A DNA stretch of 6,731 nucleotides from Candidatus Auribacterota bacterium (GTDB lineage: Bacteria > Auribacterota > UBA6266): assembly GCA_023136205.1 (NCBI GenBank), contig JAGLRQ010000118.1, forward strand, positions 1 through 6,731, in the 5' to 3' direction. Each line of letters opens with the position of its first letter. The first letter of the stretch is position 1. Shown here piece by piece: positions 1,946 through 4,823 of this stretch. Under the pieces are notes generated by a model that saw nothing but the letters and a program-made list of their open reading frames with translations, had not been told where the DNA came from and ran no database searches. A program made the translations under genes and the position numbers.

Positions 1946-3421
1946 ATGAACATAAGATGTCCAATATGTGATAATGACGCTACGATTTATAATGAAAGAG
2001 ATTATAATAATATTTTGGGGATATCGTGTAATTCATGTGGAAAATATGAAATCACAATGAATTTGAAGGACTCATTTAAAGCAGGAAATTTTGATAATAA
2101 CAAGTATATTATTGCTGGTTGGTTGTACGAGACTAAGAACAAGAGAACACACCCATTGCTAAGCAGCCAAAAAATGGCCAATAAGCGCTCTCTAACTATA
2201 GATGAAATAGTTCATAAAAAAGCTAATGTTCCTCATAGTGTAGAAGATAAGCTCAATAGAATGTTATTAAAAATAAAAGAAGATTCAAAAGAAATTGGCG
2301 AAGTAGTATCGTATCTATTATTTTGGGATTATCCTTCTATTTATGCAATGAGTCAAAATGAATTCAAACAGATTATTAGTTTATTGGAAGAAAGAAAACT
2401 TATTCGCATTACAAAAGACAGTAATCAGGCAATAGAGTTAAAGTTGTGTAATGAAGGATATAAAAAGATAGAAATGTTAAAGGATAATAAGGAACAGCAT
2501 GTGAATTTGGATTTAACCAAAGAAGATAAAAAAACCAATATATTCATAAGTTATGATTCAAAAGATAATGATTTATTGAAAGTTTTAGTGTCCGAAATAA
2601 AAAAAAGACCTATATTAAATCCAATTGTTGTTGCAACCAAACCCTCCCCGAGAAAACCATTAGCTAAGAAAGTGGAAGATGGCATTACTGAGTCTAAATA
2701 CTTTATTCCAATACTTACTAATATTTCATATAAAACTCAATGGGTTAATCAAGAAATTGGATATGCTGAAGCACTTGAAACACTTGGAAATATTAAAATC
2801 GTTCCGATTATTGAAAGTTCTGTAAGAGATAAATTAAAAGGATTCATTCATAAAAATGAAGACCTTCCCTACAGGTTTGCACGTTCGGACAATAAGAGAA
2901 AAGAAAAAATTATATTTAGAAAAAAATGTCAAACATTGTTGGATTACATCTTAGATGAAATAACAAAATTAGAAAATGTTAAAAAGCAAGAGAGAATCCC
3001 AGGGGTAAAGGAAAATTTATACGAAGTAGGTGTAAGAGGTTTTAAGGAAAAAGATATAATTGTAAATAGAAAAATAACAAAAGAATTGATGTTTAATCTT
3101 AGAGTGAAGTTATCTACGATCTATCAACATTTTATAGCATATTATTCATTTAAAACTAACACACAAGAAACAATATGGATCGGTTATAAAAACAATCAAA
3201 ATCAAAGGGGCGATCACGTAGGAAAAGATGAATATACAAAAGTTATAAAAAATAACCAAAAAATATCATATTCAATTGATGATAATGTTGTCAAAACGAT
3301 AAAAAAACGATTTCCTAATTTAACTGGCACCCCAGTGATTATCGAAAAAGTACGTTTTAGAGGTGATAGTAAAAATAATGATGTAATCAACTTTTATTAT
3401 GCTTTTTCAGAAAAGGTATAA
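1946..3421 (+). CDS. Multidomain TIR-like protein with four parts: CxxC...CxxC zinc ribbon, a possible winged-helix region, a TIR-like core and an orphan C-terminal domain
   Basis: 491-aa uninterrupted ORF in a region of about 27% GC. Residues 5-31 read CPIC..(19)..CNSC. Residues ~197-335 read TNIFISYDSKDNDLLKVLVSEI...ITESKYFIPILTNISYKTQWVNQEIGYAEAL...IKIVPII. This matches the bacterial TIR pattern: beta-A FISY(S/D)xxD, then hhhhS/TxxYxxSxWxxxEhxxA, then a hhPhh strand. The domain call is by motif only. Confidence 0.7.
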   Translation: MNIRCPICDNDATIYNERDYNNILGISCNSCGKYEITMNLKDSFKAGNFDNNKYIIAGWLYETKNKRTHPLLSSQKMANKRSLTIDEIVHKKANVPHSVEDKLNRMLLKIKEDSKEIGEVVSYLLFWDYPSIYAMSQNEFKQIISLLEERKLIRITKDSNQAIELKLCNEGYKKIEMLKDNKEQHVNLDLTKEDKKTNIFISYDSKDNDLLKVLVSEIKKRPILNPIVVATKPSPRKPLAKKVEDGITESKYFIPILTNISYKTQWVNQEIGYAEALETLGNIKIVPIIESSVRDKLKGFIHKNEDLPYRFARSDNKRKEKIIFRKKCQTLLDYILDEITKLENVKKQERIPGVKENLYEVGVRGFKEKDIIVNRKITKELMFNLRVKLSTIYQHFIAYYSFKTNTQETIWIGYKNNQNQRGDHVGKDEYTKVIKNNQKISYSIDDNVVKTIKKRFPNLTGTPVIIEKVRFRGDSKNNDVINFYYAFSEKV

Positions 3422-3475
3422 AATCAAGATAGATATTTGACATTAAATAGAGGGTGTAATACACAAAATAAAATT

Positions 3476-3781
3476 ATGAAAATTGTATGGATTAGACATG
3501 GTCCAGTTGATTACAATAGTCAAGTCGCTGACGTATTAATAGGAGATGCCCAAAAATTTGCTAGAAATTTGCCCAATATATTATGCGAACATGAATTAAA
3601 TCCCCAAATAGCCTATTTTGATAATTCCTTAAAATTTAAGAAAAACATCGAAAGATGTTATAAAACAATTGTTAATTTAGATTGTGAGAAAAAAACATAC
3701 AATTCTAATGATACTAATTTTATTAAACATTTAAGCCATGAACTTGTAGCAAAAAAGGGGACGGTTCTATTTAAATTCTAA
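3476..3781 (+). CDS. Small hypothetical protein with an N-terminal RHG motif, possibly a minimal or truncated histidine-phosphatase (SixA/PGAM-like) fold
   Basis: The ATG at 3476 gives MKIVWIRHGPVDYNS. A hydrophobic strand followed by RHG is the catalytic-loop signature of the histidine phosphatase superfamily. The protein is only about 101 aa and no Shine-Dalgarno sequence is visible. The track's TTG start (3437) coincides with a perfect TTGACA, so I prefer the ATG. Function is very uncertain. Confidence 0.4.
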   Translation: MKIVWIRHGPVDYNSQVADVLIGDAQKFARNLPNILCEHELNPQIAYFDNSLKFKKNIERCYKTIVNLDCEKKTYNSNDTNFIKHLSHELVAKKGTVLFKF

Positions 3782-3938
3782 AGGAGAAAATGGGGGCAGT
3801 TCTAATTAAGCTCCTGGGAAGTTTTATACGGACATTTATCCATCTAATTACTAGTTATGTGAATAGATGCATACAGAACATCTTATCTTAATAGTAAAAC
3901 TTGATTAAGAAAAAAGGATTTTAAGTAAAGGAATACAT

Positions 3939-4823
3939 GTGAAAGGCGAACGAGTTAGACAGTTTTTTAATTCTGAAACAAAGGCGTTACTCGCTCTTTA
4001 CAAAAATATTGAAACACTTATCCCTTCATCGAAAAAGGCTGGTGCGGCACATGTTGCAGAAGAAGGAAGATATATTGAAAGTATTATTAGACATTTTTTA
4101 AACAAGCATTTGCCAAATGACTTAAAGGCGTTTAGTGGATTTATATTAAGACCTGCAACGAAAACAGGGAATCATGACAGAACAAGAAGACGAGGAGAGA
4201 CAGACAAGCACTCCAAACAACTTGATATAATTGTTTATGACCATAAAAACTATCCTGTGTTCGAGAGTTTTGAAGAGTTTGCTATAGTTCCACCGGAAGG
4301 AGTTGTTGGGATAGTTTCAGTCAAAAAAAATCTTTATGAGGCACAAATTAAAAATGAACTTATTTCATTATCTGAAGCGGCGGAATTGTGTCATGTTAAA
4401 TGTCATAATGGTCAATTTATGAGAGGCCCTAGCACATGCTTAGTTGCTTTCTCGAATAAGGTTAAAATTAATAGTTCCTTCAAAAAAAGAGTGGGGTGGA
4501 TATTTGAAAAAATCAAAAGTTCTCATAATGAAAAGTATTTTGACCAATATGTTGGGCAAATTATTGCTTTGAACGCATTTACTGTTTTTAAGAAAAGACC
4601 GAATAGCGAAGAGAATTTCAATAAAAAAGTAGAATACATTGCATTTAACCATTCAATGGAAGAGGAATATCATTTTGGTTTACAATTTTTACTTTCAGGA
4701 ATTTTAGCTGCATATTATCACGAGTCTCGAAAACCTGAACTTAGACCAGGTTTTACAAGTTTTAAAAAAGGAAGAGGGCATGACATTGTTTTAGGACATA
4801 TTACTACTAAAAAATTAAGGTAA
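3939..4823 (+). CDS. Hypothetical protein whose N-terminal half has a PD-(D/E)xK (restriction-endonuclease-like) layout; candidate effector
   Basis: 294 aa. GTG start preceded by AAAGGA (3927-3932) with a 6-nt spacer. The ATG at 3937 runs straight into TGA. Motif order is EEGRYIESIIRHFLNKHLP (helix with acidic residues), then SKQLDIIVYD (hydrophobic strand with Asp), then PPEGVVGIVSVKKNL (strand ending in xVK). Ser sits where the canonical Glu or Asp would be. The C-terminal ~160 aa are unassigned. Confidence 0.5.
   Translation: MKGERVRQFFNSETKALLALYKNIETLIPSSKKAGAAHVAEEGRYIESIIRHFLNKHLPNDLKAFSGFILRPATKTGNHDRTRRRGETDKHSKQLDIIVYDHKNYPVFESFEEFAIVPPEGVVGIVSVKKNLYEAQIKNELISLSEAAELCHVKCHNGQFMRGPSTCLVAFSNKVKINSSFKKRVGWIFEKIKSSHNEKYFDQYVGQIIALNAFTVFKKRPNSEENFNKKVEYIAFNHSMEEEYHFGLQFLLSGILAAYYHESRKPELRPGFTSFKKGRGHDIVLGHITTKKLR

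Follow-up and report, generated by a model that had tools for sequence, protein, structure and literature searches.

The question raised by this locus is whether three neighbouring open reading frames (ORFs) in a Candidatus Aureabacteria genome form one defence system, or are independent genes lying side by side. The initial annotation, made from the DNA letters, took the first view, and described a TIR-like protein, an 'RHG mini-protein' and a PD-(D/E)xK-like protein as a candidate for a single undescribed TIR-based system. We analysed the window (the whole 6,731-nt stretch of contig JAGLRQ010000118.1, assembly GCA_023136205.1) together with its genomic context and the homologues of each ORF. 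The result favours the second view: 1946–4940 is likely to be a horizontally acquired AT-rich defence islet, consisting of two independent single-gene modules and one orphan ORF.

Composition and borders of the block

The main features of the block are as follows.

1946–3421, + strand: ORF1, TIR-domain protein of 491 aa (zinc ribbon, wHTH-like region, TIR, β-jelly-roll C-terminal domain), candidate stand-alone TIR defence protein
3476–3781, + strand: ORF2, orphan ORF of 101 aa (114 aa if started at the TTG at 3437), doubtful gene
3939–4823, + strand: ORF3, NucC-fold PD-(D/E)xK nuclease of 294 aa, DUF6602 family, GTG start, candidate stand-alone (Damona-like) defence nuclease
4913–4940, + strand: terminator-like hairpin and T-run, closing the block; the only terminator-like site, after the last ORF

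The block is flanked on one side by a corrinoid-protein gene and on the other by a lipoprotein/folD cluster. Its GC content (1946–4823) is 0.299, against 0.453 in the corrinoid gene, 0.44 in rnfB and 0.426 in folD, and GC3 in its three ORFs is 0.216–0.237, compared with 0.35–0.45 in the neighbouring housekeeping genes of a 21-kb context. The sharp drop in composition described in the initial annotation is therefore real, and its counts for single 60-nt lines (16/60 and 18/60 inside the block, 26/60, 32/60 and 35/60 in the flanks) are all exactly right on recount. We also confirm the co-directional arrangement of the ORFs, the first of which starts 50 nt after the stop codon of the corrinoid gene, and a terminator-like hairpin where a terminator had been placed (4897–4938).

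The gaps upstream of ORF1, ORF2 and ORF3 are 50, 54 and 157 nt, and the TIR and nuclease genes are separated by 517 nt. The three ORFs may be co-transcribed, given that they are co-directional, closely spaced and followed by the only terminator-like site. A promoter scan of the window gave nothing above shuffled expectation, and an Rfam search of the window gave no match.

As noted earlier, there is no integrase or transposase, and this holds for ±10 kb around the block; no convincing flanking direct repeats or att-like sites were seen around it. A search for an empty site, using the exact corrinoid protein as query, returned the same strain only, and the insertion is for this reason deduced from composition rather than by comparison. 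The block is compositionally foreign, and looks most likely to be a small horizontally acquired anti-phage islet. In four independent assemblies both long ORFs are 99.9–100% conserved, an identity at which a selection analysis on strain variants is uninformative.

A further AT-rich patch (739–1253, GC 0.30), upstream of the corrinoid gene, holds a four-helix-bundle gene; there is therefore more than one foreign-looking insert at the locus. Downstream lies a gene for a 553-aa ATPase, which has only generic ATPase matches in PADLOC, and whose size fits RecN.

The TIR protein

ORF1 is made up of the following regions, and an identical protein is annotated in a Candidatus Aureabacteria MAG.

1946–2059, + strand: N-terminal four-Cys zinc ribbon (C5, C8, C28, C31), all four Cys invariant in alignment A8
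2354–2500, + strand: wHTH-like helix-strand-strand-helix region, aa 137–185, predicted only (AlphaFold2 pLDDT ~70)
2534–2995, + strand: TIR domain, aa 197–350, with catalytic-type Glu E270 (codon 2753–2755) in the invariant motif QWVNQE
3008–3418, + strand: C-terminal β-sandwich/jelly-roll domain, aa 355–491, presumed sensor (AlphaFold2 all-β, pLDDT ~75)

The TIR fold with its catalytic Glu, which had been recognized by eye, is supported. Pfam TIR_2 matches aa 199–295 (5e-11, 43.5 bits against a cut-off of 28), and this region has a pLDDT of 85–96 in the AlphaFold2 model. Foldseek matches it to MAL, AbTir (24% identity, rmsd 2.1), BtpA, RUN1, SARM1 and the SPARTA TIR. Residues E270, W266, Q265, N268 and S202 are invariant across 17 homologues. 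In PADLOC the best models are of the ThsB type (4e-11), followed by PDC-S66 (1e-6). A retron type XII (RT-TIR) assignment was rejected: the NCBIfam score, at 40.5 bits, falls short of the cut-off of 600 and covers the TIR part only, and there is no RT domain.

The zinc ribbon has weak matches to Lar_restr_allev (0.0055) and to the NCBIfam ECs_2282 CxxC family (4e-5), and the N-terminal domain (aa 3–180) also occurs in short proteins that do not have this TIR (P0144, P0259). The wHTH-like region, with predicted helices at 137–149 and 169–185 and strands at 153–157 and 163–167, has no family match. Foldseek relates the C-terminal domain to FAP20-type jelly-rolls and to the GH12 xyloglucanase fold. 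Free-standing proteins of about 285 aa consist of the TIR and this type of C-terminal domain, while many other C-terminal domains are fused to the same QWVNQE TIR subtype. No member of the TIR family was found in the viral contigs searched.

ORF1 resembles the ThsB proteins of Thoeris (types I–XI) in having a TIR domain with a catalytic Glu, and its TIR subtype, like many ThsB proteins, combines an N-terminal TIR with C-terminal regions that vary. It can also be compared with the E. coli single-protein systems TIR-II, -V, -VI and -IX, in which one protein is enough for defence and the TIR active site is required (Wang et al. 2024, PMC11350192). The proposed logic is the same, namely that the TIR active site is intact and that no partner gene is required. 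In a comparison by domains rather than by sequence, the accessory domains differ, being TPR, TM, AAA or none in the E. coli proteins, and zinc ribbon/wHTH plus jelly-roll in ORF1.

The nuclease

The PD-(D/E)xK nuclease fold suggested for ORF3 is borne out. Pfam DUF6602 matches at 1.7e-17 (63.7 bits against a cut-off of 27), and the best PADLOC matches are the Cas-associated PD_DExK profile (5e-19) and the NucC effector (9e-9). The AlphaFold2 model is confident (pLDDT 93.2, pTM 0.91). In Foldseek the best 14 matches are all NucC (E 2.8e-13, TM 0.68–0.73, ~257 aligned columns), and a profile search of the PDB finds NucC at 1e-9 over the catalytic core. The predicted active site, from family alignments, is:

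4224–4226, + strand: D96
4317–4325, + strand: S127-V-K129
4356–4358, + strand: E140
together with E120

ORF3 shares the fold of the whole NucC protein (PDB 6P7P, 6UXF, 6Q1H, 7ZGW), which is an effector of CBASS and type III CRISPR. The catalytic D73 and K106 of NucC align with D96 and K129, and the NucC 'PAES' strand with 'PPEG' in ORF3. D96 and K129 had been picked out in the initial annotation, as had E270 of the TIR protein, and all three are invariant in the family alignments. There are also clear differences. The Mg-binding E104 of NucC is replaced by an invariant Ser (S127), S-x-K being present in 80/80 family members, so that where NucC has the motif I-D-x30-E-A-K, ORF3 has D96-x30-S127-V-K129. 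ORF3 also exceeds NucC by about 50 residues and has a conserved basic loop (aa 73–92). Unlike NucC, it is accompanied by no CD-NTase or Cas10, either in the window or in the surrounding ±10 kb.

The next Foldseek matches after NucC are restriction endonucleases of the Cfr10I/NgoMIV/Bse634I/SgrAI type, and are weak (E 0.07–0.3). Enzymes of the Cfr10I type have a variant D...S-x-K...E active site, in which the usual acidic residue gives way to a Glu from the following helix, and the arrangement D96...S127-V-K129...E140 fits this pattern. Unlike these enzymes, ORF3 gives no sign of being sequence-specific or of having a cognate methyltransferase.

A functional precedent is Damona, a single-gene anti-phage system of the DUF6602 family from the Vibrio cholerae superintegron, which protects when cloned alone in a heterologous host (Darracq et al., 10.1101/2024.07.02.601686). 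Both proteins match Pfam DUF6602, with secondary matches to Cas PD_DExK and to the CBASS small endonuclease (Endonuc_small), a likeness that is at the domain level only. Damona is also found on prophages, as are some members of the ORF3 family. A Vibrio DUF6602 protein used as a proxy for Damona is 28% identical to ORF3 over aa 6–146 (48% of the query), where the blastp criterion of the Damona authors asks for a coverage of ≥50% and E<1e-5. It retains the canonical E-x-K, and its C-terminal half is unrelated. Given this limited similarity, the 294-aa nuclease family is a distinct subfamily.

Homologues of ORF3 at 45–80% identity (n=389) occur in Bacteroidota, Bacillota, Pseudomonadota, Chloroflexota and Acidobacteriota. 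Four family members are carried by viral or prophage contigs, and none was found in the phage GenBank set. ORF3 belongs to a subfamily of highly conserved proteins, about 294 aa long and nearly always encoded alone.

The short open reading frame

The 'RHG mini-protein' is attested only as an ORF. A search of 5.8e9 proteins returned ORF2 itself and nothing else, and there was no match in Pfam, PADLOC, NCBIfam, PHROG or PDB, even at E≤10. The RHG motif had suggested a histidine phosphatase, and this reading was rejected, as there is no His_Phos match in Pfam at E≤10 and no PDB sequence match to that family. ORF2 is probably spacer sequence or a remnant rather than a component.

Genomic neighbourhoods

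Co-occurrence of these genes in other genomes was looked for from both sides. On the nuclease side, 82 loci with ORF3 homologues were searched with tblastn for the TIR protein and ORF2 at E<1, and the 142 nearest neighbours were compared with Pfam. A TIR or ORF2 homologue was present in 0/82 loci, and there was no universal neighbour. The recurrent families among the 142 neighbours were AbiEii, HEPN, AAA_15, STAND NTPase and RT; TIR, CD-NTase and Cas10 were not among them. Two close homologues (74% and 71% identity) are located among DndB/AAA/RmuC genes, or beside AAA_13/DUF2971.

On the TIR side, 84 loci with homologues of the ORF1 TIR were searched for DUF6602 with an HMM built from alignment A3; the contigs are mostly short (1–5 kb), which limits the view of the neighbourhood. 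DUF6602 or ORF2 homologues were found in 0/84 loci, and no neighbour is conserved. The nearest neighbours are heterogeneous and defence-flavoured (MmeI restriction-modification in four, Mrr_cat in three, Fic, KAP NTPase). Four contigs inspected individually have mutually unrelated neighbours and no conserved partner. The classical TIR partners (SIR2/SLOG/Macro ThsA, CD-NTase, Argonaute, RT, STING/SAVED) are, as the initial annotation had remarked, absent at the locus studied here, and SIR2, SLOG and Macro are also not among the recurrent neighbour families of the 84 loci. Unlike in Thoeris, neither ThsA nor any other cognate effector is conserved beside this TIR subtype in the 84 loci.

The sister contig L004 carries a TIR gene that is 83% identical, followed by different cargo. 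The DNA that it has in common with the window is limited to the TIR ORF (1944–3414, 87%) and an 84-nt patch at 5002–5085, with the homology ending at the boundaries of the TIR ORF. Between the two shared stretches L004 has an unrelated gene of 250 aa, with no PADLOC match, and no homologue of ORF2 is present on the contig.

As a positive control, the same method recovered retron type I-B (ATPase-Toprim plus RT) as the partner of a nuclease subclade. In 11/82 loci a nuclease of the 294-aa family directly follows the RT gene, at an intergenic distance of −13 to +52 nt. The window, unlike these loci, has no RT or ATPase, and ORF3 belongs to the stand-alone majority of its family.

It is concluded that the TIR and nuclease genes are most likely two independent modules and not parts of a three-gene system, given that they are separate in all other genomes examined and that ORF2 has no relatives. 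Homologues that do not co-localise in other genomes were the outcome on which the initial annotation had agreed to give up its three-gene system, and that proposal is not supported here.

Discussion

An anti-phage role, as originally suggested, is the most plausible function of the block. In the first module, the jelly-roll C-terminal domain, possibly with the zinc-ribbon/wHTH N-terminal domain, would recognize a phage cue, after which the TIR domains would oligomerise and Glu270 would hydrolyse NAD+ and so abort the infection, in the manner of the single-protein TIR systems that have been validated. In the second, infection would trigger the NucC-fold endonuclease to cut DNA non-specifically, using D96, S127-x-K129 and E140, and the nuclease would act by itself, as the DUF6602 protein Damona does. 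Damona and the single-protein TIR systems have already shown that both kinds of gene can work alone.

ORF3 could alternatively be a NucC-like effector gated in trans by a ligand that does not come from the neighbouring TIR protein, either a cyclic oligonucleotide from an unlinked CBASS or type III CRISPR system or a phage-derived nucleotide. NucC is activated by cA3, and NucC homologues have been described from CBASS as well as from type III CRISPR loci; the NucC fold of the whole protein and the Cas-associated profile as best PADLOC match agree with such a role. The cA3 pocket of NucC consists of R53, Y81, T226 and V227, with H136 and Y141 in the gate loop, and a nearly invariant Tyr105 in ORF3 would lie beside the position of the adenine-stacking Tyr81, with a one-residue offset in a sequence alignment of the core only. 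We nevertheless consider this unlikely, since members of the family occur by themselves in widely differing genomes, where the recurrent nearest-neighbour families include neither a cyclase nor Cas10, and since Damona needs only to be cloned alone in order to protect.

A signal-effector pairing of the TIR protein and the nuclease is mechanistically conceivable, because the NucC fold is signal-activated and TIRs make signals in Thoeris. The trio, or at least these two proteins, would then be one Thoeris-like system, in which the TIR senses infection and an ADPR-derived signal activates the nuclease allosterically. The genes lie side by side in one orientation, the only terminator-like site comes downstream of all of them, E270 is invariant, and ORF3 has the full fold of a ligand-activated nuclease. 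Moreover, many Thoeris types with new effectors have recently been found, and the part of the systematic survey considered here describes 29 putative types, with predicted DNases among the effectors. However, in the same part, standalone TIRs are left out of Thoeris and regarded as effectors that deplete NAD+, the QWVNQE motif does not appear in the section of the TIR table covered, and NucC/DUF6602-type effectors do not appear in the sections of the tables covered. The two genes do not co-occur in any of the 82 nuclease or 84 TIR loci, by a method that does find true partners such as retron I-B; L004 keeps the TIR gene and swaps the cargo downstream; and both kinds of gene work alone elsewhere. 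A single Thoeris-like system is thus very unlikely. There is a slimmer chance still that this Aureabacteria lineage has itself paired the TIR protein with the NucC-fold nuclease, such that an ADPR-derived messenger binds a NucC-like pocket and turns on DNA degradation.

The block might also be the decaying remnant of a mobile element, with one or both long ORFs no longer functional in defence. The 517 nt that separate the two genes do look like junk, as does the orphan ORF, and no mobility gene remains nearby, but both long ORFs are intact, retain every family-invariant residue, and are preserved almost without change in the four assemblies, which makes decay improbable. It is extremely unlikely that ORF2 is a small antidote to a TIR NADase toxin, as although it starts just after the TIR stop codon, it has no homologue anywhere and is missing beside the L004 TIR gene and all 84 TIR homologues.

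Should the TIR protein and the nuclease be coupled after all, the locus would link TIR signalling to an effector of the CBASS/CRISPR class, and would represent a Thoeris-type pathway caught during assembly. On the preferred reading of two independent modules, it is a routine case, from an uncultured phylum, of a small defence islet with new representatives of known kinds of gene, and it carries the caution that gene adjacency within defence islets does not define a system. The analysis has also brought to light some features of the two families. The QWVNQE TIR subtype freely swaps both C-terminal and N-terminal domains, as expected of sensor modules in single-protein TIR defences. The nuclease represents a stand-alone NucC-fold subfamily of about 294 aa, very conserved and widely transferred, in which Ser takes the place of a Glu in the active site, and the same nuclease has been recruited as a third gene of type I-B retrons.

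Layout and composition of the locus

All the noteworthy ORFs in the window are on the forward strand. Genes were assigned to families by profile searches.

Features of the window
13-738, +, rnfB, 3′ part
809-1168, +, four-helix-bundle "23S rRNA IVP" gene
1254-1895, +, corrinoid protein
1946-3421, +, ORF of the 491-residue TIR protein
TTG 3437 or ATG 3476 to 3781, +, small (101-residue) ORF
3939-4823, +, ORF of the predicted 294-residue nuclease, GTG start
4913-4940, terminator-like hairpin with a T-run
5116-5424, +, 102-residue lipoprotein-like Zn-ribbon protein
5489-6385, +, folD

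The same proteins, identical in sequence, have been annotated in a MAG of Candidatus Aureabacteria. A scaffold of 538 kb shows the gene order rnfCD(G)EAB, IVP, corrinoid protein, TIR protein, 101-residue ORF, DUF6602 (the nuclease), lipoprotein, folD, mdh, bacA, and the 10 kb on either side of the block hold neither an integrase nor a transposase. GC content is 0.299 for the block (1946-4823), with GC3 values of 0.216-0.237 in the three ORFs; the housekeeping genes alongside the block have GC 0.37-0.46 and GC3 0.35-0.45. The intergenic gaps are 50 nt between the corrinoid and TIR genes, 54 nt from the TIR gene to the ATG at 3476, and 157 nt from the small ORF to the GTG of the nuclease. These values, together with the hairpin and T-run at 4913-4940, confirm the physical description of the block in the initial annotation, whose five hand counts of G+C were exact on recount.

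A second AT-rich patch surrounds the IVP gene (739-1253). This gene, which encodes an Avd-like four-helix bundle, is bracketed by inverted repeats at 730-771 and 1200-1236 (37 nt, 89% complementary, with a perfect 24-nt core), in which the heptamer GTATTGA recurs as the building unit. The gene with its flanking repeats resembles a self-contained cassette that was inserted there, with rnfB on one side and the corrinoid gene on the other. A further IVP gene is found at the edge of a DUF6602 island in Aquirufa (L005 173-532). In the wider genomic context (L001 18219-18542), some 5 kb past the block on its downstream side, is another small, strongly AT-rich gene (107 residues, GC 0.28, GC3 0.22) with no family match, directly after a gene for a 553-residue SMC_N/AAA_15 ATPase, whose size fits RecN.

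The TIR protein

The TIR_2 family of Pfam matches residues 199-295 above its cut-off, and PADLOC gives matches to ThsB-type TIR domains and a weaker one to the single-gene candidate PDC-S66. The motif S-x3-QWVNQE does not vary in an alignment with 17 homologues, and its E270 occupies the position of the catalytic glutamate in NADase TIR domains.

The AlphaFold2 model has a mean pLDDT of 67, being good for the TIR domain (85-96), lower for the C-terminal domain (about 75) and poor for the N-terminal part. It consists of a short β Zn-ribbon with four invariant cysteines, a helix-strand-strand-helix unit (residues 137-185), the TIR domain, a long helix and an all-β C-terminal domain. A Foldseek search of the PDB with the TIR region found MAL, AbTir (24% identity, rmsd 2.1 Å), BtpA, RUN1, SARM1 and the SPARTA TIR-APAZ protein, while the C-terminal domain matched jelly-roll proteins (FAP20 type, GH12 xyloglucanase).

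An exhaustive phmmer search gave 562 hits. They include a free-standing family of about 285 residues, consisting of the TIR and the same C-terminal domain, and show that the QWVNQE subtype of TIR is fused to many unrelated C-terminal regions. Only two examples of the full 491-residue architecture were met, each in an Aureabacteria-like contig, and the family was not found in the viral contigs of IMG/VR. The N-terminal domain (four-Cys Zn-ribbon and wHTH-like; residues 1-195, window 1946-2530) is a movable module: it occurs without this TIR in short proteins of 178-201 residues (P0144, P0259), and once with the same TIR subtype and another C-terminal domain, in a 506-residue protein (L106 2455-3975).

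The NucC-fold nuclease

The 294-residue protein matches DUF6602 in Pfam (63.7 bits), and in PADLOC a Cas-associated PD_DExK profile (5e-19) as well as NucC effector profiles. It has 389 homologues, mostly of 287-310 residues with 45-80% identity, from several phyla, and full-length members at 42-44% identity are also present on four viral or prophage contigs in IMG/VR (L174-L177). The AlphaFold2 model is excellent (pLDDT 93.2, pTM 0.91). Its best 14 PDB matches in Foldseek are all NucC (about 257 aligned columns, TM 0.68-0.73), followed by far weaker matches to BbvCI, NgoMIV, SgrAI, Cfr10I and Bse634I, and the family profile recovers NucC from PDB sequences at 1e-9. The domains originally called here, a TIR and a PD-(D/E)xK-like nuclease, are supported.

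The active site of NucC is I-D73-x30-E104-A-K106, and its cA3 pocket is formed by R53, Y81, T226/V227 and a gate loop (10.1101/694703). The equivalent of the active site in the 294-residue nuclease is L-D96-x30-S127-V-K129, in which the Mg-binding glutamate of E-x-K is replaced by a serine (S-V-K-K) that is invariant in 80/80 members examined. An invariant glutamate, E140, lies 11 residues beyond K129 (window codons 4317-4325 for S127-V-K129 and 4356-4358 for E140). Enzymes of the Cfr10I/NgoMIV/Bse634I group have D...SxK...E as their form of the active site, and the 294-residue protein is therefore probably an intact nuclease rather than a dead one.

Other DUF6602 proteins (plasmid matches, including a Vibrio protein) align only to residues 6-151. 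In contrast to the 294-residue family, these Vibrio-type proteins retain E-x-K, and the conserved basic loop of residues 73-92 is missing from them. Judged by these sequence differences, the 294-residue proteins form a distinct subfamily within the NucC/DUF6602 superfamily.

The middle ORF

The 101-residue ORF has no match in Pfam, PADLOC, NCBIfam or PHROGs, nothing in Pfam or among PDB sequences even with the threshold relaxed to E ≤ 10, and matches only itself among 5.8 billion clustered proteins. It is missing from every related locus, on both the nuclease and the TIR side. Chance is the simplest explanation of its RHG tripeptide, and it is doubtful that the ORF is a gene.

Linkage of the three genes

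Nuclease loci were collected by a genome scan (80) and singly (2), making 82. Searches with tblastn found neither the TIR protein nor the small ORF at E < 1 within ±8 kb of the nuclease, and clustering of all neighbours gave no universal partner. Among the 142 nearest neighbours, the recurrent Pfam families were AbiEii, HEPN, AAA_15, STAND NTPase and RT, and these did not include TIR, CD-NTase or Cas10. From the TIR side (80 loci from a metagenome scan and 4 fetched singly), neither DUF6602, sought with an HMM built from the family, nor a homologue of the small ORF was found, and the TIR gene had no conserved neighbour. Its 111 nearest neighbours include MmeI-type R-M, Mrr_cat, Fic and KAP NTPase, and their recurrent families do not include SIR2, SLOG or Macro.

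The approach is able to detect real linkage, since it recovered the nuclease gene after the ATPase-Toprim and RT genes of a type I-B retron in 11/82 loci (L057, L067, L069, L071, L074, L076, L077, L079, L082, L083 and L085; for example L082 4414-8846). In the 10 of these with the upstream region present, the nuclease starts −13 to +52 nt from the RT stop. This subclade occurs in both Pseudoalteromonas and Lachnospiraceae, and because the arrangement is shared by the two, these loci are probably a three-gene variant of retron I-B with a NucC-fold third component.

The sister contig L004 carries a TIR protein 83% identical to that in the window. The DNA homology covers exactly the TIR ORF (1944-3414, 87%) and then only an 84-nt patch (5002-5085); between the two, an unrelated 250-residue gene replaces the small ORF and nuclease. 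Thus, with no linkage from either side and a different cargo in L004, the genes of the block behave as separate cassettes. The key claim of the initial annotation, that the trio is one undescribed TIR system, is not supported: the homologues fail to co-localize, which was its own refutation test.

The 84-nt patch is 83% conserved (L004 2674-2755), and in both contigs a gene for a small secreted protein or lipoprotein starts about 30 nt downstream of it, the two encoded proteins being unrelated. It folds as a long imperfect hairpin (−31.6 kcal/mol, z = −3.3), contains a promoter-like TTGAAT-17 nt-AAATAT stretch, and may serve in regulation or as a 5′ leader.

Another DUF6602 nuclease shares a defence island with a TIR gene on the Vibrio parahaemolyticus plasmid pVPSD2016-3 (L091; NZ_CP034302.1 78784-83057). 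Here a 327-residue DUF6602 gene adjoins yejK; an HTH gene comes about 1 kb further downstream and is followed by a Thoeris-like SIR2 and TIR pair; this TIR has its own SIR2 partner.

Proposed function

The block is most likely a defence islet of foreign composition that holds two modules independent of each other. The islet reading given originally is supported. Folds, conserved residues, composition and the lack of linkage are established by the analysis; the activities and defence role of both modules are suggested by family membership and the flavour of the neighbourhood. In the first, the jelly-roll domain, and perhaps also the Zn-ribbon/wHTH domain, would sense a phage component or nucleic acid; TIR oligomerization and Glu270-dependent NAD+ hydrolysis would follow, and infection would be aborted. 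Single-protein TIR systems have been validated in E. coli, and require the TIR active site (PMC11350192).

In the second module, the NucC-fold endonuclease would degrade DNA once triggered. A DUF6602 protein from an integron cassette of Vibrio cholerae, Damona, protects against phage when cloned alone, and its secondary matches (Cas PD_DExK, CBASS small endonuclease) are the same as those of the 294-residue nuclease (10.1101/2024.07.02.601686). DefenseFinder detections of Damona now extend to other taxa and to phages; in the literature searched, DUF6602 is mentioned only in the Damona paper.

A signal generator is almost never linked to genes of the 294-residue family. There is a small chance that the nuclease is ligand-gated and acts in trans, its cue coming either from a CBASS or type III CRISPR system that is not linked to it or from a phage nucleotide. 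Coupling of the TIR protein to the nuclease is conceivable, since the two genes are adjacent and may be co-transcribed and NucC is ligand-gated, but with their homologues found apart we consider it very improbable. In a systematic survey of TIR signalling, Thoeris types are defined by a conserved adjacent effector, and stand-alone TIRs are set aside as likely NAD+-depleting effectors (10.64898/2025.12.03.692087). The part of its Thoeris tables covered has no NucC/DUF6602 effector and no QWVNQE-type TIR, which is weak evidence. It is unlikely that the block is a decaying remnant, its TIR motif and nuclease pattern both being preserved, or that the TIR protein and the small ORF, absent from other TIR loci, are a toxin-antidote pair.

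The components of the block are further members, from an uncultured phylum, of known kinds, and the NucC-like subfamily to which the 294-residue nuclease belongs is distinct and has been little studied.
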